In this document: in pieces, positions 21,948 to 51,606 of the stretch | Layout: each line of letters starts with the position of its first letter | Position numbering within the stretch: position 1 is the first letter of the stretch | Assembly (NCBI GenBank): GCA_964479045.1 | Contig: CAYZJI010000002.1 | Span: 51,660-115,659, forward strand | Direction of reading: 5' to 3' | Origin: an uncultured Enterobacteriaceae bacterium | GTDB lineage: Bacteria; Pseudomonadota; Gammaproteobacteria; Eutrophobiales; Eutrophobiaceae | DNA: 64,000 nt | Translations under genes and position numbers: made by a program | Notes under the pieces: model-generated | The model's database searches: none | What the model saw: only the letters and a program-made list of their open reading frames with translations | Told to the model about the DNA's origin: nothing

Positions 21948-23366
21948 ATGAGCGTACAAATGGTTTCAGACAAACCCAAACTGGGAAGCGTGTTACGCAT
22001 CTGGACGCCGGAAGACAAGGCGTTCTGGGAACATCAGGGCAAGGCCATCGCCAACCTCAATCTCTGGATCTCCGTTCCCTGCCTGTTTCTTGCCTTTGCC
22101 GTATGGCAGTTGTGGAGTGTGGTTGCGGTCAATCTGAATACACTCGGTTTCACCTTCACACCCAATCAGCTGTTCTGGCTGGCCGCCGCACCGGCACTTT
22201 CCGGTGCAACCTTGCGGATTTTCTATTCATTCATGGTGCCCATCTTCGGCGGGCGTGAATGGACAGCCATCTCGACAGCCTCACTGCTGATACCCACGAT
22301 TGGTATCGGTATTGCGATACAGGATCTGTCGACCAGTTACTCCACATTTCTGATATTGGCATTGTTGTGTGGCTTCGGCGGTGGAAATTTTTCATCCTCC
22401 ATGGCCAACATCAATTTCTTTTTCCCCAAGGAACGCAAGGGATCGGCACTCGGTGTGAATGCCGGGCTTGGCAACCTTGGTGTATCTTCCGTACAGTTTC
22501 TGGCACCGCTGGTGATTGCGGCGGGTGTGTATGGTCCACTGGCTGGACCACCACAAACTATCATCAATCAAGCCGGACAGACTGTGAACATCTGGGCACA
22601 GAATGCCGCCTTTGTGTGGGTGCCTTTCATTATTATTGCCAGTCTGGCGGCATGGATAGGCATGAATGATATTGCCGATGCCAAAGCATCGTTCCGTGAT
22701 CAGGCGGTGATCTTCAAACGCAAGCACAACTGGATTATGTGCTGGCTCTATCTCGGGACCTTCGGTTCGTTCATCGGCTACTCCGCAGGTTTCCCTTTAC
22801 TCATCAAGTCACAATTTCCCGGCGTGAACGCATTGCAGTATGCGTGGATGGGCCCGCTGATTGGCGCAGTGATACGTCCATTTGGCGGGTGGTTGGCGGA
22901 CAAGCTGGGCGGAGCCATTGTGACCTTCTGGAATTTTATTGTGATGGCACTGGCAGTAGGTGGGGTGCTGTATTTCCTGCCGTCCGGTCCTTCGGGCGGA
23001 AGTTTTGCCGGATTCTTCCTGTGTTTTATGGTGTTGTTTCTCACGACGGGCATCGGCAATGGCTCAACCTTCCGCATGATCCCGGTGATCTTCATGACCG
23101 ACAGGCAACGTGCTGCTGCAGGCAAGGGCAAGGAAGCAGCAGAACAGGCGGTGAAAGAAGCCAACAAGGAAGCCGCCGCAGTCCTTGGTTTTTCGGGGGC
23201 CATTGGCGCCTACGGCGGATTTTTTATTCCAAAAAGTTATGGCACTTCGATCAGCTTGATGGGCGGCCCTGAAGGTGCGCTGTATTTATTCATTGTGTTT
23301 TATCTAAGCTGCATTTGCATTACATGGTGGTATTACGCTCGCAGGAATGCCGAAATGCCGTGTTAA
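21948..23366 (+). CDS. narK2: Nitrate/nitrite antiporter, MFS NarK family
   Basis: 472-aa MFS immediately upstream of narG. Confidence 0.8.
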   Translation: MSVQMVSDKPKLGSVLRIWTPEDKAFWEHQGKAIANLNLWISVPCLFLAFAVWQLWSVVAVNLNTLGFTFTPNQLFWLAAAPALSGATLRIFYSFMVPIFGGREWTAISTASLLIPTIGIGIAIQDLSTSYSTFLILALLCGFGGGNFSSSMANINFFFPKERKGSALGVNAGLGNLGVSSVQFLAPLVIAAGVYGPLAGPPQTIINQAGQTVNIWAQNAAFVWVPFIIIASLAAWIGMNDIADAKASFRDQAVIFKRKHNWIMCWLYLGTFGSFIGYSAGFPLLIKSQFPGVNALQYAWMGPLIGAVIRPFGGWLADKLGGAIVTFWNFIVMALAVGGVLYFLPSGPSGGSFAGFFLCFMVLFLTTGIGNGSTFRMIPVIFMTDRQRAAAGKGKEAAEQAVKEANKEAAAVLGFSGAIGAYGGFFIPKSYGTSISLMGGPEGALYLFIVFYLSCICITWWYYARRNAEMPC

Positions 23367-33975: not shown

Positions 33976-34049
33976 TGGCTGGGGGACTAGGATTTGAACC
34001 TAGACTGGCGGAGTCAGAGTCCGCTGTCCTACCGTTAGACGATCCCCCA
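33976..34049 (-). tRNA. tRNA-Gln (anticodon CUG), encoded CCA
   Basis: Minus-strand read: TGGGGGATCGTCTAACGGTAGGACAGCGGACTCTGACTCCGCCAGTCTAGGTTCAAATCCTAGTCCCCCAGCCA. 7-bp acceptor stem, D and T arms, anticodon loop CU-CUG-AC. Close to E. coli tRNA-Gln. Confidence 0.85.
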
Positions 34050-43874: not shown

Positions 43875-44555
43875 ATGAGAATACTGCTGATAGAAGATGA
43901 TCAGCAACTGGTGACCAGTTTGCGGCAGGCATTGACGCTGGCCGGATTTGTGGTGGTCACCAGCAACGACGGGATAGACGGTCAATACCTTGGCGAGTCG
44001 GAATCCTTTGATGCGGTGATTCTCGATCTTGGTCTGCCCGGCAGACCCGGACTTGAAGTATTGAGAAACTGGCGGGAACAGGATAATGATGTGCCGGTAT
44101 TGATACTCACGGCACGCGGTGCCTGGCACGAAAAAGTCGAGGGTTTCAAGGCAGGCGCAGATGATTATTTGGGTAAACCATTTCACCAGGAAGAATTGAT
44201 CGCGCGCCTGCACGCCTTGATACGCCGCCGGCATGGTCGCGCCGACCCGACCCTCAAGGCCGGCGGCCTGGTGCTGGATGCTGAAAGGCAATCGGTGACT
44301 ACACCACAAGGTGATGCATTACAGTTGACCGGCACGGAATACCGGTTGCTGGATTATTTAATGCACCATCCCGGCAAAATCATTTCCAAATCACGTTTGC
44401 TCGAACATGCCTACAATGGTGATGCCAGTGCTGATGAGAACCTGATCGAGGTTTATATCAACCGTCTGCGTCGCAAGATTGGCAGCGAGTACATCGAAAC
44501 CCGTCGTGGGCAGGGTTATTTGTTTGTTGAAGTTTCTGGCAGGGGCGGCGCGTGA
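43875..44555 (+). CDS. OmpR-family two-component response regulator
   Basis: Receiver domain (MRILLIEDD...DAVILDLGLPG) plus a winged-helix output domain. The stop of the second PepSY gene abuts the start. Confidence 0.85.
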   Translation: MRILLIEDDQQLVTSLRQALTLAGFVVVTSNDGIDGQYLGESESFDAVILDLGLPGRPGLEVLRNWREQDNDVPVLILTARGAWHEKVEGFKAGADDYLGKPFHQEELIARLHALIRRRHGRADPTLKAGGLVLDAERQSVTTPQGDALQLTGTEYRLLDYLMHHPGKIISKSRLLEHAYNGDASADENLIEVYINRLRRKIGSEYIETRRGQGYLFVEVSGRGGA

Positions 44556-45883
44556 GATCACTCAAGGCGCGCCTTGGCAGCGGTCTTGTGGTCGTGCTCG
44601 TACTGGTATTTACCCTGCAATGGATGCTGGTCAGCATCGCTATTCGTTATGTGACAGAAGACTACATCACTGCCCGCATGTCCCGCGACATAGACAATTT
44701 GCTCGCTGGACTCGCTTTCAATTCAATCGGTTTGCCGGAGATACTTCGCGAGCCGGGTGATGTTTATAACAATGAGCCGTTTTCCGGCCATTATTACCAA
44801 ATCTATGTTGAAGGATACATACTGCGCTCGCGTTCATTCTGGGATCAATCGCTGGATATCCTTCCGGTATCGCCGGGAAACAGTGCTACGCAAAGAATAA
44901 ACGGGCCGCTGGATCAACCCTTGCTTGTATTGAGCAAGGGATTCAGCAAGCAACAGCGGCAGATGACTATCAGTGTGGCGGAAGATATGTCGGCCGTGAA
45001 TGCCGCCATCAGCAAGATACAGAATCTTTATCTGGCCATGACGATAGCACTGTTGTTGGTGTTACTGTTGTCGCAGCAATGGATAGTGCATCGTTCCATG
45101 AAATCACTGACGGCCACCCGATTTGATCTGGAACGTATTACCCGCGGTGAAGCAGACAAACTTCCGGAAAATGTACCAGCCGAGATCGGGCCTTTGGTCA
45201 GGGAAATAAATACACTGCTTGATATTCTGGCAAAGCGTCTGGTGAAAACACGCACCGCAGTGGGCAATCTCGCGCATGCATTGAAGACCCCGCTCAGTCT
45301 GCTGACACAACTGACCAATGATCGGTTGATTGCGGATGAACCACAGTTGCAAAAGCAACTCAGGCATCAGGTAGATACCATACATCTGGCGCTGGAGCGG
45401 GAATTAAACCGCGCAAGACTGGCAGGTGACGGGAAAGCTGGCCGGCGTTTCGATCCGGCGCAGGACTTGCCTCCATTAATTAAAACATTGCAGCGGATCT
45501 ATCAGGACAAATCCGTCAACATCACGCTGACCGTTTCAGGACACTCCAGCTGGCCGGCAGACCAGGAAGACATGCTAGAGTTGTTTGGCAACCTTGCCGA
45601 CAATGCCTGCAAATGGGCCCGGCAGCAGGTCAGTATTAAATTATGTCCCGATCAGTATTGTTTCAGAGTGGAAGATGATGGCCCGGGCTGCCCGCCGGAT
45701 CAGATTGAGTCATTGAGTCAACGTGGTCTGCGTCTGGATGAAAATATCAACGGACATGGCCTCGGGCTCTCCATCGTGCGGGATATTGTCAATCATTATC
45801 AGGGACAACTCGATTTTTATCGCCCGGCCGACCTGGGAGGTTTGGGCATTGAGGTCAGAATATTCGCACATCAGCCAGACTAG
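44552..45883 (+). CDS. Two-component sensor histidine kinase
   Basis: Two TM helices with a periplasmic loop, HAMP, an H-box (LAHALKTPLSLL) and an HATPase_c domain (DDGPGCP...GHGLGLSIV). ATGA overlap with the response regulator. Confidence 0.85.
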   Translation: MRSLKARLGSGLVVVLVLVFTLQWMLVSIAIRYVTEDYITARMSRDIDNLLAGLAFNSIGLPEILREPGDVYNNEPFSGHYYQIYVEGYILRSRSFWDQSLDILPVSPGNSATQRINGPLDQPLLVLSKGFSKQQRQMTISVAEDMSAVNAAISKIQNLYLAMTIALLLVLLLSQQWIVHRSMKSLTATRFDLERITRGEADKLPENVPAEIGPLVREINTLLDILAKRLVKTRTAVGNLAHALKTPLSLLTQLTNDRLIADEPQLQKQLRHQVDTIHLALERELNRARLAGDGKAGRRFDPAQDLPPLIKTLQRIYQDKSVNITLTVSGHSSWPADQEDMLELFGNLADNACKWARQQVSIKLCPDQYCFRVEDDGPGCPPDQIESLSQRGLRLDENINGHGLGLSIVRDIVNHYQGQLDFYRPADLGGLGIEVRIFAHQPD

Positions 45884-46011
45884 GGCGCTCGCCTCGCAGC
45901 AGAAATCCAGACACTGGCAAGTATTCTCCGCTTTCGTTCGAGTCTATACTTTCCGACGGAATTATAAAAAACAGAAACCTTCATGGATTGGGGCTGCTAC
46001 CGGAACACATC

Positions 46012-47109
46012 ATGACACCCTGGGAACGTTATCAGGCTGAATTAAAGCGCGAGGACTTCAGTCCTGATCCGGCACAGGCCGCGGCTGTACAACATACACA
46101 GTCTCTTTACGAGGCACTATGCGCGAGTGCCGCGAAAAAGGATGGATTGATCACCCTCATCAAAAAGTCGCTGGGCAAAAACAACACTACTTTGCCACGG
46201 GGCCTCTATTTATGGGGCGGCGTTGGCCGCGGCAAGACCTGGGTTGTGGATTCGTTTTATGCGTGCCTGCCCTTTGCGGAGAAAAAGCGTCTGCACTTTC
46301 ACCGTTTCATGCAGATGGTGCACCAGGAATTGCGGCAATTAAAGGAACAGGAAAATCCATTATTACTGATTGCTGACAAGATTGCCGGCGATACCCGGGT
46401 GTTATGTTTTGATGAGTTTCATGTCTCGGACATCACTGATGCCATGCTGTTGGGCGGACTGCTCAAGGCCCTTTTTGAAAGGGGCGTGGTCCTGGTGGCC
46501 ACCTCAAATGAAGCGCCGGATGATCTTTACCGTGGCGGTTTGCAGCGCGAGCGGTTTCTGCCGGCCATAGCCCTGATTAACCAGTACACACACGTAGTTA
46601 ATGTGGATTCCGGTATCGATTACCGGCTTCGCTTTCTCGATCAGGCGGAGATTTATCACTGTCCGCTGGATGCGCAGGCAGAAAAAATGCTCAACAACAA
46701 TTTCATGCATATCGCAGCGGATGCCGGGTGCAACGGCGTGATGCTTGAAATCGAAGGGCGTTGCATCCCGACAATACGCAGTGCCGTGGGTGTGGTCTGG
46801 TTTGAATTTAATGCCATTTGCGATGGACCTCGTGGCCCGGCAGACTACATTGAGATCGCCCGCCAGTACCAGACGGTGCTGATTGGTAATGTGCCGGTGC
46901 TGGATGAAAACATGAATGATCAGGCCAAACGGTTTATGACACTGGTGGATGAGTTTTATGATCGCAACGTGAACCTGATTATCACCGCCGATGCAGAACC
47001 TCATCAGCTATACACCGGCAAGCGCCTCGCCAAATCCTTCCAACGCACGATCAGCCGCTTGCAGGAAATGCGCACCCACGATTACCTCGCGAAGCAGCAT
47101 TTGTCGTGA
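46012..47109 (+). CDS. zapE: Cell division protein ZapE (AFG1-like ATPase)
   Basis: Walker A GGVGRGKTWVVDSFY. AFG1/YhcM family. Start moved to the ATG at 46012 (MTPWERYQ); the track start at 45988 is a TTG. Confidence 0.75.
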   Translation: MTPWERYQAELKREDFSPDPAQAAAVQHTQSLYEALCASAAKKDGLITLIKKSLGKNNTTLPRGLYLWGGVGRGKTWVVDSFYACLPFAEKKRLHFHRFMQMVHQELRQLKEQENPLLLIADKIAGDTRVLCFDEFHVSDITDAMLLGGLLKALFERGVVLVATSNEAPDDLYRGGLQRERFLPAIALINQYTHVVNVDSGIDYRLRFLDQAEIYHCPLDAQAEKMLNNNFMHIAADAGCNGVMLEIEGRCIPTIRSAVGVVWFEFNAICDGPRGPADYIEIARQYQTVLIGNVPVLDENMNDQAKRFMTLVDEFYDRNVNLIITADAEPHQLYTGKRLAKSFQRTISRLQEMRTHDYLAKQHLS

Positions 47110-47214
47110 CTCGGGACTCGTTGCTGGGTACTCGTTAAAATTCAGGAGCACTCTGTCAAAAACCTCGAGCTTATTTTTATAATTATATATTATACAAATA
47201 GTTATAATAATATC

Positions 47215-47243
47215 TTGACTATTAAAGTTAAATATCCTATATA
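47215..47243 (+). promoter_or_regulatory. Near-consensus sigma-70 promoter TTGACT-17 nt-TATATA
   Basis: Read directly: TTGACT at 47215-47220, a 17-nt spacer, TATATA at 47238-47243. Lies in an AT-rich intergenic region after zapE. Confidence 0.5.
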
Positions 47244-47249
47244 AGTAAT

Positions 47250-47323
47250 TGATGATAGTTTACTGAATGAGCTCTGACTCTTTAGTAACGGATCGTTGCC
47301 TTAATCAACGGTCCGTTTTTTTT
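47250..47323 (+). ncRNA. Candidate small RNA (about 75 nt) bounded by a sigma-70 promoter and an intrinsic terminator
   Basis: Promoter as above. Terminator hairpin AACGGATCGTTG-ccttaat-CAACGGTCCGTT (47288-47318, one mismatch) followed by T8 (47316-47323). No ORF spans the interval. Confidence 0.35.
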
Positions 47324-47346
47324 CCCTGGTGTCTGGAGGTAATTTT

Positions 47347-47559
47347 GTGAGTGCAGTGATCAGTACCGATATGAACCCGGCGCAGGAACGGGAAATTGCG
47401 TCCCTGCTTGAGTTTCTCTACGGTGACAAAATGGTGTATCTGCCATTGGGGCAGCCGGAGCAGTTATTGTCTCTCGCCACGTGTCTCGGTTTTATAGATG
47501 CCGATGGCTACCTCACCCGCAAAGGCCGCACGCTGATGGCCCGGCACTATCTGGACTGA
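47347..47559 (+). CDS. Small hypothetical protein (about 70 aa)
   Basis: A GGAGG lies 7 nt upstream of the GTG at 47347. A hairpin plus T-rich stretch follows the stop (47571-47605). No recognisable domain. Confidence 0.3.
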   Translation: MSAVISTDMNPAQEREIASLLEFLYGDKMVYLPLGQPEQLLSLATCLGFIDADGYLTRKGRTLMARHYLD

Positions 47560-47714
47560 TTTAATCCTTCCCGCAGCAGCCTTGTCGGCTGCAGATTTTC
47601 ATTCCTGCTTTCCTGTCGCGCAGCGGGCGCGCTGCGGCTATTCTTACCTGTAGGGGCATCTATCCATTGATGCCCTGACCATCACCGGAATAACGAGAAG
47701 AATAAGGGGGGAAG

Positions 47715-49772
47715 ATGGCCGCCTATTCAACTGAAGACATCCGCAATATTGCCCTGACCGGCCATGGCGGTGCGGGCAAAACCACGCTGGTGGAAGCGCT
47801 CCTGCAAGAGGCCGGTGTTATCAATGCACGCGGCAGTGTGGAAAAAGGCACTACAACCTGTGATTTCGACCCACTGGAAAAAAGCTACCAGCATTCCCTT
47901 GAGGCCGCGATCGTCAGCATGGATTACCACGGCGGTCATGTGAACCTGATCGATACCCCGGGATACCCGGATTTCTCCGGCCGGGCACTGGCCGTATTAC
48001 CGGCGGTGGAAACCTGTGCCGTGGTTATCAATGCCCAAAATGGTATTGAGTTGATGACCCAACGCATGATGCAGGCGGCCCATGAGTTCGGCCTGGATCG
48101 CTTGATTATCATTAATAAAATTGATCAGGCTGGTACGAATCTTGAAAAGATACTGAATCAGATAAGAGATTTATTTGGTAGTGAATGCTTACCAATAAAT
48201 CTCCCTGCCGAGAACGGAAAACGGGTGGTGGACTGTTTTTTTCAACCGGCGGCCAGCGGGGCAAAAACGGATTTCTCCTCGGTGGCCGAGGCCCACACTC
48301 ATATTATTGATCAAGTCATCGAACTGGATGACGCCCTGATGCAGGTGTATCTGGAACAGGGTGAGGAAGTCACGCCGGAACAATTGCATGCCCCGTTCGA
48401 ACAGGCCCTGCGTGAAGGCCATCTGATTCCCGTGTGCTTTGTCTCGGCTGAAACGGGGGCCGGCGTGCCGGAACTGCTGGATATTTTTGCCCGGCTCATG
48501 CCCACGCCTCTGGAAGGCAATCCACCCCAATTTCACAAAGGGACCGGAGCCGAGGCCAAACCTTTCGCGGTGAGCCCGGATCCCGGCAAACATGCACTCG
48601 CGCATGTGTTCAAGGTCAGCATCGATCCCTATGCCGGACGGCTCGGAGTATTCCGTATTCATCAGGGCCGGTTGAAACGTGATACCCAGCTCTTTATCAA
48701 TGACGGGCGTAAACCCTTCAAAGTGAGCCACCTGCTGAAACTCCAGGGCAAGCAACATCAGGAGATCACGGAAGGGATTCCCGGAGATATTTGTGCCGTA
48801 GCCAAGGTGGATGACATTCATTTTGATGCTGTCCTGCATGACTCTCATGATGAAGATCATATCCACCTGCGTTCCATCAATTTTCCTCCGCCGATGCACG
48901 GGCTGGCGATTGAAGTCAAAAGCCGTGGCGATGAGCAGAAGATATCGGATGCCCTGCATAAACTGGAGGCCGAGGACCCCAGTATGCGGGTCGAACACCA
49001 TGCCAGCCTGAATGAGACTGTCATCCGGGGCCTAGGTGATTTGCATCTACGCGTGATGCTGGAGAAATTGAAAACTGCTTACAATGTCGAAGTTAACACA
49101 CATCCACCCCGCATTGCCTATCGCGAAACCATTACCATCCCTGCAGAGGGACATCACCGCCATAAAAAACAGACCGGTGGTGCCGGCCAGTTTGGAGAAG
49201 TGTACCTGCGCATCGAGCCCCTGCCGCGCGGCACCGGATTTGAGTTTGTCGATGATGTCGTAGGCGGTGTAATTCCGCGGCAATTCATTCCGGCCGTCGA
49301 GAAAGGTGTACGGCAGGTACTGGAACAGGGCGTGATTGCCGGTTATCCGGTGCATGATGTGCGTGTGAGTCTCTACGATGGCAAGTACCACACGGTCGAC
49401 TCCAAGGAAATTGCGTTTGTCACGGCCGGCAAGAAAGCGTTTATTGAGGCGGTGAACAAGGCACAGCCAGTGGTGCTGGAGCCGATCGTGATGATCAACA
49501 TTACCGCACCGGCTTCGAGTCTGGGTGATATTACAGGTGATCTTTCGGTGAAGCGGGGCCGCATCAACCAGACCAGCAGCCTCTCAGGTGGCATGATGAA
49601 TATCCAGGGGCTGGTGCCTTTAAGCGAAATCAGCAGTTACCAGTCCCAGTTAAAATCCATCACCGGCGGGACAGGTTCATATACCATCGAATTCAGCCAT
49701 TATGATCCGGTGCCGGCCCGGCGCCAGCAGGAGCTCATGAAGGAGTTCAAACCCAGGGCCGACGAAGATTGA
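47715..49772 (+). CDS. Elongation factor G paralog (EF-G2-type translational GTPase)
   Basis: G-domain motifs AHGGAGKTT and DTPG. EF-G domains II-V. 685 aa. Strong GGGGGGAAG Shine-Dalgarno. Confidence 0.8.
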   Translation: MAAYSTEDIRNIALTGHGGAGKTTLVEALLQEAGVINARGSVEKGTTTCDFDPLEKSYQHSLEAAIVSMDYHGGHVNLIDTPGYPDFSGRALAVLPAVETCAVVINAQNGIELMTQRMMQAAHEFGLDRLIIINKIDQAGTNLEKILNQIRDLFGSECLPINLPAENGKRVVDCFFQPAASGAKTDFSSVAEAHTHIIDQVIELDDALMQVYLEQGEEVTPEQLHAPFEQALREGHLIPVCFVSAETGAGVPELLDIFARLMPTPLEGNPPQFHKGTGAEAKPFAVSPDPGKHALAHVFKVSIDPYAGRLGVFRIHQGRLKRDTQLFINDGRKPFKVSHLLKLQGKQHQEITEGIPGDICAVAKVDDIHFDAVLHDSHDEDHIHLRSINFPPPMHGLAIEVKSRGDEQKISDALHKLEAEDPSMRVEHHASLNETVIRGLGDLHLRVMLEKLKTAYNVEVNTHPPRIAYRETITIPAEGHHRHKKQTGGAGQFGEVYLRIEPLPRGTGFEFVDDVVGGVIPRQFIPAVEKGVRQVLEQGVIAGYPVHDVRVSLYDGKYHTVDSKEIAFVTAGKKAFIEAVNKAQPVVLEPIVMINITAPASSLGDITGDLSVKRGRINQTSSLSGGMMNIQGLVPLSEISSYQSQLKSITGGTGSYTIEFSHYDPVPARRQQELMKEFKPRADED

Positions 49773-49911: not shown

Positions 49912-51606
49912 ATGTATCGCTACGATAATTACGACCAGACTATTGTCAACGAACGGGTGGCGCAATTCCGCGACCAGACCCGCCGCTTTCTGGCGGGTGA
50001 ACTGAGCGAAGACGAATTCCGCCCGCTGCGGTTGATGAACGGGCTCTATATCCAGCGTTATGCACCTATGCTGCGTGTGGCCGTTCCCTACGGCCTGCTC
50101 TCAACGAAACAGATGCGCATGCTGGCGCATATCGCCCGTACCTATGACAAGGGCTACGGACATTTCAGTACGCGCCAGAACATCCAGTACAACTGGCCGA
50201 AACTGGAAACCGTACCCGATATTCTTGCCGATCTGGCGAGCGTACAGATGCATGCAATCCAGACCAGCGGTAACTGCATCCGTAATATCACATCGGATCA
50301 TTTTGCCGGCATCGCGGCGGATGAAATTGAAGATCCGCGTCCGTATTGTGAAATCCTGCGCCAGTGGTCCACCTTCCATCCGGAGTTTTCCTATCTGCCG
50401 CGTAAATTCAAATTTGCCGTGATCGGTGCTGAGCATGACCGCGCGGCGGTGCAGGTGCATGACATCGGTTTGTATCTGGTGAAGAACGAACGCGGCGAGA
50501 TTGGTTTCAGGGTGCTGGTTGGTGGTGGTCAGGGCCGCACACCTTACGTGGGCGCGTTTATTCGTGAGTTTCTGGAGAAGAAATATCTGCTGTCCTACAT
50601 GGAAGCAATCCTGCGCGTATATAATCGTTACGGCCGCCGCGACAACAAGTTCAAGGCGCGTATCAAGATCCTGGTCTATGCCGTAGGCCCGGAAAAGTTC
50701 GCCCGCATGGTGGAAGAAGAGTGGGAGCAGATCAAGGACGACCCGAGACTGATCCTCGGTCAAAAGGAAATTGACCGTGTGAAAGCCTGTTTTAGTCCGC
50801 CTGCCTATATGCAGGGCGCAGAGCGTGATATCACGTTTAACGAAAAACTGGCGGCTGACAAAAACTTCAAAATCTGGGTGGGCCGCAATGTCAAACCGCA
50901 TAAAGTGCCGGGTTATCGTGCGGTCATCGTGTCCTTGAAGACACCCACGGTTGCACCAGGTGATGCCACCGACAAACAGATGGATTTCGTTGCTGATCTT
51001 GCAGATCAATACAGCCACAGTGAGATTGTCGTGACGCATGATCAGAACCTCGTTCTGCCGCATGTGCAGCAGGCGGATCTGTATGCACTGTGGCAGGCAT
51101 TGAAATCATTCGACCTCGCCACACCAAATATCGGTTTGCTGACGGACATGATTTGCTGCCCGGGCCTGGATTTCTGTTCACTTGCCAACGCCAGTTCCAT
51201 TTCCATCTCACGGCAGATTAACGAGAAATTCAACGATCTGGATTATCTGCATGATCTGGGCGAGATCAAGATCAAAATGTCCGGTTGCATGAATGCCTGC
51301 GGCCATCATCACGTCGGCCATATCGGCATTCTGGGGGTGGACAAGAAAGGCGTGGAGTTTTACCAGCTCACTCTGGGAGGTTCTGCGGAAAATCTTACTA
51401 CACTGGGTGATCGGCTTGGTCCGGCCATTGAAAAAGACAAGGTGGCAGACACCATCGGCAAAATACTTGATGTGTATCTGGAGCAACGCAAGGAAGGCGA
51501 AATTTTCCTCGATACCTATCGCCGCATTGGTATGGAACTGTTCAAACAACGCGTATATGGTTCCACTGAATCAGAAGAAAGGATGAAAGCCGTTGCGAGT
51601 TATTAA
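49912..51606 (+). CDS. cysI: Sulfite reductase hemoprotein (siroheme/[4Fe-4S], NirA/CysI family)
   Basis: Siroheme-Fe4S4 cysteine cluster CPGLDFCSLANAS...MSGCMNACGHHHVGHIG. 564 aa. Confidence 0.75.
   Translation: MYRYDNYDQTIVNERVAQFRDQTRRFLAGELSEDEFRPLRLMNGLYIQRYAPMLRVAVPYGLLSTKQMRMLAHIARTYDKGYGHFSTRQNIQYNWPKLETVPDILADLASVQMHAIQTSGNCIRNITSDHFAGIAADEIEDPRPYCEILRQWSTFHPEFSYLPRKFKFAVIGAEHDRAAVQVHDIGLYLVKNERGEIGFRVLVGGGQGRTPYVGAFIREFLEKKYLLSYMEAILRVYNRYGRRDNKFKARIKILVYAVGPEKFARMVEEEWEQIKDDPRLILGQKEIDRVKACFSPPAYMQGAERDITFNEKLAADKNFKIWVGRNVKPHKVPGYRAVIVSLKTPTVAPGDATDKQMDFVADLADQYSHSEIVVTHDQNLVLPHVQQADLYALWQALKSFDLATPNIGLLTDMICCPGLDFCSLANASSISISRQINEKFNDLDYLHDLGEIKIKMSGCMNACGHHHVGHIGILGVDKKGVEFYQLTLGGSAENLTTLGDRLGPAIEKDKVADTIGKILDVYLEQRKEGEIFLDTYRRIGMELFKQRVYGSTESEERMKAVASY

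Follow-up and report, generated by a model that had tools for sequence, protein, structure and literature searches.

Upstream of a small open reading frame (ORF) in the gap between zapE and the gene of an EF-G paralogue, the stretch of DNA analysed here (64 kb, called the window below) carries a promoter-like sequence followed by a hairpin and a run of T residues. A sequence-only reading of the locus left two options for this element: it could be an independent small-RNA gene, or it could be a terminating leader or attenuator of the small ORF. We asked which of them better fits the element and its counterparts in related loci.

The locus and its surroundings

The features of the locus are listed below, with coordinates given in the window.

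45988..47109, + strand: zapE/AFG1-family ATPase gene, upstream of the element (Pfam AFG1_ATPase, E = 4.5e-140)
47165..47214, + strand: AT-rich stretch 5′ of the -35 hexamer, with a conserved GTTAyAATAA-type motif
47215..47246, + strand: promoter, with -35 TTGACT at 47215-47220, a 17-nt spacer and -10 TATATA at 47238-47243, extended to the invariant TATATAAGT
47250..47266, + strand: 5′ end and invariant 17-nt segment UGAUGAUAGUUUACUGA, predicted transcription start site (TSS) about 47250-47252
47261..47287, + strand: hairpin 1 (UACUGAA.GAG / CUCUUUAGUA), present in the minimum free energy (MFE) fold, with a variable apical part
47287..47323, + strand: intrinsic terminator, with a 12-bp stem (47287-47298/47306-47317), a 7-nt loop and T8 at 47316-47323
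47335..47349, + strand: Shine-Dalgarno (SD) sequence GGAGG (47335-47339), 11 nt past the T tract, and start codon GTG (47347-47349), with an SD-start gap of 7 nt
47347..47559, + strand: 70-aa ORF downstream of the leader, the proposed controlled gene, with a predicted winged-helix-like fold
47576-47592 and 47619-47636, + strand: two GC-rich hairpins with weak T tails, between the 70-aa ORF and the EF-G paralogue
47715-49772: EF-G paralogue, after the 70-aa ORF
49912-51606: sulfite/nitrite-reductase haemoprotein gene, after the EF-G paralogue

No ORF of at least 30 aa covers the promoter-hairpin element, in agreement with the earlier statement that no plausible ORF lies over it. The ribosome-binding site that the same reading had assigned to the downstream ORF (47347-47559) is the GGAGG at 47335-47339. 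The closest relatives of the locus are found in uncultured gammaproteobacterial MAGs and metagenome contigs, with ZapE identities of 66-73%.

Several observations concern the neighbouring genes. Directly 5′ of zapE lie response-regulator and histidine-kinase genes (43875-45883) that overlap by 4 nt, and such a pair also precedes zapE in the related locus L021. The zapE ORF is listed from a TTG at 45988, and its homologues align only from residue 8-10 on (45988-46012); judging from this alignment, the true start is probably the ATG for the Met of 'MTPWERY'. In another related metagenome locus (L165, positions 1-895), a divergent Cas9-family gene lies upstream of zapE. Within the coding region of the EF-G paralogue there is a sharp AT-rich dip (GC 0.30 at 48100-48199). 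Finally, the hairpins at 47576-47592 and 47619-47636 may mark the end of the small-ORF transcript, which would make it a monocistronic unit. In L082, the single relative inspected by eye for this purpose, they have no obvious counterpart.

The terminator hairpin

The 12-bp hairpin and the eight T residues at 47316-47323 were confirmed at the positions first proposed. The arms, AACGGATCGTTG (47287-47298) and CAACGGTCCGTT (47306-47317), form 12 pairs, 6 of them G-C and one U.G, with a hairpin energy of about -15.7 kcal/mol. In a consensus scan, no terminator-like site of the region was stronger than this hairpin, and its occurrence is not explained by chance: no other hairpin on either strand of the 64 kb combines a stem of at least 9 bp with at least six T residues, and any hairpin of this kind appeared in 3 of 30 shuffles. 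Canonical strong intrinsic terminators seem to be rare in the source genome, as far as the 64-kb window represents it.

The hairpin sequence is single-copy in the window. A covariance model (R1) built from 12 homologous leaders found only those 12 in 1.1 Mb of related loci plus the window, one per locus, always at this position and once in the window. On these grounds, a repeat or mobile element was rejected. The 12 leaders are those of the window, L081, L082, L102, L110, L116, L125, L126, L169, L171, L001 and L117. The last two are more divergent and are referred to as class A′, the remaining 10 as class A.

Within this set, the terminator stem was paired in 93% of cells, against 25–56% in slid controls. 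Compensatory changes on both sides were present in 5 of the 12 stem pairs, the inner and outer pairs both covary, and the covariation score of the stem was reached by none of 500 shuffles. In every member the stem is followed by 7-9 T. A structure conserved in related genomes, as envisaged in the sequence-only reading, was thus recovered. The stem core CGGAUCG/CGGUCCG is invariant in all 12 members, and the spacing between its two halves varies from 10 to 16 nt (manual count). Such variation would be expected of an RNA hairpin more than of a rigid dimeric DNA operator.

Between the zapE stop codon (47109) and position 47287, the consensus scan found no other terminator-like site. Transcripts of zapE probably end at this hairpin as well.

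The promoter

The element had been introduced as starting with a near-perfect, textbook sigma-70 promoter. Its position (47215-47243) stood, and it proved to be conserved in 42 loci, but the praise was too generous: the promoter matches the sigma-70 consensus at 9 of 12 positions and has no T at -7. The -35 hexamer TTGACT agrees with the consensus TTGACA at 5 of 6 positions, and the 17-nt spacer falls within the 16-18 nt of sigma-70 promoters. The -10 hexamer TATATA agrees at 4 of 6 positions, with the A at -11 present and an A in place of the T at -7. The sigma-70 consensus scan did not call the promoter because its -10 hexamer lacks this last T. In shuffled sequences, matches of similar quality occurred by chance 2.7 times per 2.5 kb, and on sequence alone the promoter is not beyond chance.

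It is the conservation among relatives that we regard as decisive evidence of promoter function. The pattern TTGAC-N17-TATATAA, which occurs once in the 64-kb window, is invariant in 42 distinct related loci. In these 42 unique loci, the succession of TATATAA, C or G, and T is invariant or nearly so, as are the spacer positions TTAnATA, and a TA dinucleotide 12 nt 5′ of the -35 (about -47) is found in 40-42 of the 42 promoters. The promoter is conserved beyond the sigma-70 contacts, and an overlapping operator is possible. The extra conservation may reflect such an operator or an unusual -10 frame.

Two features of this region (47203-47246, likewise at the equivalent positions of about 42 loci) are worth recording. 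The spacer motif TTAnATA is almost a direct repeat of the -10 (TAAATAA-CC-TATATAA), and an alternative -10 frame, shifted by 2 nt, reads TATAAG with a 19-nt spacer. The AT-rich stretch at 47165..47214 may act as an UP element; GC is 0.19 at 47150-47249. Readings of TGATGATAATTTACTGA as a Fur, LexA or DnaA box were rejected after a check by eye, which gave only a half-site-like TGATAAT.

Taken together with the covarying stem, the alignments indicate that both terminator and promoter are genuine and have been conserved among related uncultured bacteria of marine origin.

The 70-aa protein gene

A tblastn search located the small ORF directly after zapE in many related loci. Among 112 ORF-carrying loci, zapE lies directly upstream in 94, and the next gene downstream is the EF-G paralogue in 55 and a sulfite reductase gene in 33. 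The alignment of 25 members revealed a conserved core, YGDGxVYLP...GFIDxEGYLTRKGRxLLA, and in most members the start codon is TTG or GTG at the aligned position. Judged by this conservation, the small ORF is a real gene.

A profile search returned at least 599 homologues, which are unnamed, annotated as "hypothetical" or labelled eIF-2beta. The 'eIF-2beta/eIF-5' label on some JGI homologue records looks spurious. A weak match to the wHTH family PF24409 of Pfam was obtained for 24 of the 25 aligned members; the 70-aa ORF of the window gave no Pfam match, and NCBIfam held nothing for the family. The AlphaFold model of a database homologue (pLDDT 83) has a three-helix, winged-helix-like fold. The family is uncharacterised, and the model suggests a winged-helix fold of the DNA-binding type.

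The predicted leader RNA

The comparative data support a discrete transcript of about 75 nt, from the conserved promoter to the end of the T tract, in line with the 70-80 nt that had been proposed. The predicted 76-nt RNA folds with an MFE of -23.3 kcal/mol (z = -4.5), and none of 200 shuffles folded as well. Its 5′ end is placed solely by distance from the -10. The 17-nt 5′ segment is invariant across the leaders (UGAUGAUAAUUUACUGA) and is unpaired in the predicted terminated fold. Hairpin 1 is present in 5 of the 10 class-A leaders.

The 5′ segment also contains a mini-ORF of 4 codons (ATG ATA GTT TAC TGA, 47252-47266) without an SD. All 10 class-A leaders keep it, with the reading MI(I/V)Y-stop and its start at the predicted TSS; in L102 the TGA is replaced by TAA, and the stop is retained. 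The mini-ORF is absent from the A′ leaders (L001 and L117) and from the leaders described below as class B, all of which retain the AAUUURCUG motif. A leader peptide of the trp/his type was rejected: the only ORF has 4 codons, no SD and no regulatory codons, and it is not conserved beyond class A.

Comparison of the window with Rfam 15 gave nothing at the gathering threshold except a tRNA at 33979-34049. In the interval 47000-47800, the best sub-threshold match was a snoRNA model (E = 0.46, 18 bits against a threshold of 60 bits), and no Rfam matches were obtained in 16 related loci.

Leader types among related loci

Each of the 12 class-A and A′ leaders has the same layout: the 17-nt 5′ segment, a variable middle, the hairpin with its invariant core, 7-9 U and an SD. 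The order and spacing from promoter to hairpin are fixed in all 12. The T tract is separated from the SD by 2-12 nt in the homologous leaders and from the start codon by 12-23 nt across the set of 12. Conservation is uneven along the element. Among the 10 class-A leaders, the 5′ segment has a mean pairwise identity of 0.96, the promoter 0.86, the two terminator cores 0.97 and 0.90, and the loop 0.48; the ORF DNA of the same loci has 0.70.

About 60 loci have the same promoter motif between zapE and the same ORF. Some 30 of the related loci form class C (e.g. L008-L016), in which no hairpin intervenes and the promoter lies 49-76 nt 5′ of the ORF. On this arrangement, the class-C promoter is plainly that of the ORF. 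Class B (e.g. L005, L085 and L167) shares the AAUUURCUGA motif with class A. Its P1 helix is homologous to hairpin 1, with one compensatory pair (A-U to G-C). The class-B terminal hairpin and T run are weak and differ in sequence from those of class A, with proteins that are about 60% identical.

A stringent predictor found a terminator within 45 nt of the ORF start in 13 of 89 unique loci, against a background of 0.022 per 45 nt; 11 of these 13 belong to a single clade, that of the window, so that the loci are not independent. The idea of convergent terminators in several leader classes was dropped: only classes A and A′ have strong ones, and class B, L163 and L165 carry weak hairpin-plus-T arrangements.

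Two further relatives, L007 (5160-5235) and L002 (5170-5300), retain the 5′ motif UUGAUGGUAAU and have no terminator. In L007, CUCC...GGAG could sequester the SD, and in L002, a 9-bp pairing of GGUAAUGAU with AUCAUUGCC encloses an inner hairpin. In some lineages, the leader may work at the level of translation. Sequestration of the SD by the 5′ segment was also considered; the MFE folds of L110 and L125 show it, but those of other members do not do so consistently, and the idea was rejected.

A probable terminating leader and how it might work

In the window, the 11 nt between T tract and SD (2-12 nt in the homologues) leave no room for a second promoter. The ORF would then be expressed only from transcripts that pass the terminator, and it must use the same promoter as the putative short RNA. 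This, together with the class-C loci, in which the shared promoter serves the ORF with no hairpin, argues that the element is a terminating 5′ leader. The layout is that of an attenuator, i.e. the leader precedes a co-oriented gene and has no intervening promoter. We therefore find it reasonably probable, from the comparative evidence, that the element consists of the promoter and terminating 5′ leader (attenuator) of the gene for the 70-aa winged-helix-like protein. The attenuator option of the sequence-only reading fits the data better, given the SD 11 nt past the T run and the promoter shared with hairpin-less relatives; of the two options, an independent small-RNA gene is the less probable.

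The proposed course of events is as follows. The strong conserved promoter (47215-47246) would start RNA synthesis near 47250, and after about 75 nt the RNA would meet the terminator at 47287-47323, 11 nt before the ribosome-binding site. By default, most transcripts would stop there and give a short RNA of about 75 nt. Read-through transcripts alone would yield the protein, so that the hairpin would act as a transcription attenuator. Read-through would presumably be conditional. UGAUGAU (47250-56) could pair with the inner half of the 5′ arm of the terminator, AUCGUUG (47292-98), and thereby form an antiterminator, which some factor (a protein, a ligand or a ribosome) might stabilise or block.

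Such an antiterminator pairing is plausible. In folds of nascent RNAs truncated ahead of the 3′ arm, pairing between the 5′ segment and the 5′ arm of the terminator was seen in about 9-10 of the 12 members, and this pairing (GAUGAU/AUCGUU) encloses hairpin 1. The inner 5 pairs are intact in all 12 members of the alignment; they include one double change from U.G to G.U and two single changes that preserve pairing. In L001 and L117 (GUAGGAU / AUCUUGU), checked by hand, all seven pairs are kept, with three double changes. The candidate helix is weak, with 7 bp of which 3 are G.U, and a helix of this length was obtained with 8.6% of shuffled 5′ segments. Its strands are nearly invariant, so covariation is minimal. 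The nascent fold of the window has an energy of -13.5 kcal/mol vs -23.3 kcal/mol for the terminated fold.

A more elaborate possibility, which we hold only tentatively and think rather unlikely, is that the leader is a bistable sensor RNA, in which the antiterminator between the 5′ segment and the terminator arm works with a bound ligand or protein, or is gated by the mini-ORF. In the former version, UGAUGAU-AAUUUA-CUG would pair with CGG-AUCGUUG, and the invariant unpaired nucleotides would bind the ligand or protein. In the latter, a leaderless mini-ORF with its AUG at +1 to +3 would hold a ribosome that blocks the antiterminator. The role of the mini-ORF is a low-probability proposal.

Alternative explanations

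The short RNA could instead be the actual product of the locus. It would then be a stand-alone, trans-acting sRNA of about 75 nt whose 5′ seed pairs with target mRNAs and whose hairpin and U tail bind an Hfq-like chaperone; read-through into the ORF would be incidental, or the locus would have a dual function. The RNA does have the architecture of Hfq-type sRNAs, with a conserved promoter of its own, a strong terminator whose tail of 7-9 U reaches the minimum of 7 typical of this class, and a conserved unpaired seed. Indeed, its best-conserved part is the 17-nt 5′ segment that is predicted to be unpaired, the middle hairpin is variable, and the AT-rich upstream region and the consensus -35 suggest high output. 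However, the downstream ORF has no other promoter, so that this explanation leaves its transcription unaccounted for, and there are relatives that retain the promoter and the ORF and lose the hairpin. Nor did a search for targets help: with RNAduplex, 61 start regions of the 64 kb gave a best seed-TIR duplex of -12.7 kcal/mol vs a mean of -12.85 for shuffled seeds, a comparison of low power. The window contains only one 12-nt complement of the 5′ segment (AAACTATCATCA, 22555-22566), some 600 nt into the ORF at 21948-23366. By chance, about 0.06 matches of this kind would be expected; in view of its position deep in the ORF, we judged it a chance match and rejected it as a regulatory target. 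Overall, we consider a stand-alone sRNA improbable, although the terminated RNA may have a trans-acting role.

A simpler role for the hairpin, as a plain terminator of zapE through which the promoter fires by leakage, appears still less probable. Termination would then be constitutive and only damp a strong promoter. This would be in line with the lack of any other terminator-like site between 47109 and 47287, with a terminated fold that has an advantage of about 10 kcal/mol over the alternative, and with the weak TTG and GTG starts, which suggest that expression of the ORF is held low. A plain terminator, however, needs neither the invariant 17-nt segment nor the stem core, both conserved far above coding DNA, and it does not call for the fixed order and spacing of promoter and hairpin that all 12 members share; in many relatives, zapE is not followed by any terminator. 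The conserved sequences might also act as DNA, with the inverted repeat CGGATCG...CGGTCCG and the segment past the -10 serving as operators for the winged-helix protein or another regulator, through autorepression or as a roadblock. The predicted fold of the gene product is of the DNA-binding winged-helix type, the stem core sequence is invariant, and conservation in the promoter spacer and over the first 25 transcribed nt goes beyond what sigma-70 would require. Against this stand the variable half-site spacing (10 to 16 nt), the covarying stem pairs with 7-9 T always following, which are the mark of an RNA terminator, and the different sequence of the class-B hairpin despite proteins that are about 60% identical. 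We regard operators in place of the RNA mechanism as very improbable; an operator inside the promoter that coexists with it is possible.

Comparison with known systems

Attenuators and riboswitch platforms of the ON type that act on intrinsic terminators include the pbuE/ydhL adenine riboswitch and the pyr and trp leaders. The terminating leader proposed here resembles them in its promoter-proximal intrinsic terminator within the 5′ leader of the regulated gene, in the predicted ability of an upstream segment to pair with the 5′ arm of the terminator, and in a terminated fold that is the more stable of the two. Since the terminated fold is more stable, control would be kinetic. The element differs from these systems in having no known aptamer (no Rfam match in the window or in 16 loci). 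Unlike the attenuators, it has no leader peptide with regulatory codons, and its alternative helix is short, rich in G.U pairs and shows little covariation.

Small RNAs can also be derived from 5′ UTRs by premature termination, as in the case of the riboswitch-derived SreA and SreB of Listeria. With these and with Hfq-type sRNAs, the element has in common a single-stranded conserved 5′ region, an internal hairpin, a Rho-independent terminator and a long U tail, and, as in the SreA/SreB type, the short RNA would arise from an mRNA leader. In contrast to Hfq-type sRNAs, it has no target complementarity in the 64 kb searched, and it is lineage-specific and absent from Rfam.

In the HMP-PP (thiS-motif) riboswitch, conserved nucleotides lie within the terminator stem, and the stem of the element is likewise conserved beyond the needs of pairing. 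However, there is no match in sequence or structure, the genomic context is a different one (winged-helix protein, EF-G paralogue and sulfite reductase), and the invariance of the stem can partly be explained by dual pairing and a GC clamp beside the U tract. RNAs of the SgrS/SgrT type have a dual function, since they both base-pair and encode a small protein. Similarly, one promoter of the element would give a short structured RNA and a longer isoform for a small protein, but here the ORF lies 3′ of the terminator and not inside the putative sRNA. In general, it appears to be a lineage-specific terminating leader outside every described Rfam family.

Implications

To our knowledge, there are essentially no experimentally defined regulatory RNAs in this uncultured clade of marine and sediment gammaproteobacteria. 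If the proposed reading is true, the element would represent a cis-regulatory leader not described before and, with it, an abundant short RNA of these organisms, and the invariant promoter and leader offer precise targets for mutagenesis. A new regulatory principle would follow only if the sensor reading holds. Should its mini-ORF version be true, read-through into the winged-helix gene, and perhaps into that of the EF-G paralogue, would report the capacity for translation initiation. For the widespread 70-aa winged-helix family, the terminating leader would mark its gene as a tightly controlled one, whose expression would be set jointly by the conserved strong promoter, the leader terminator and a weak TTG or GTG start.
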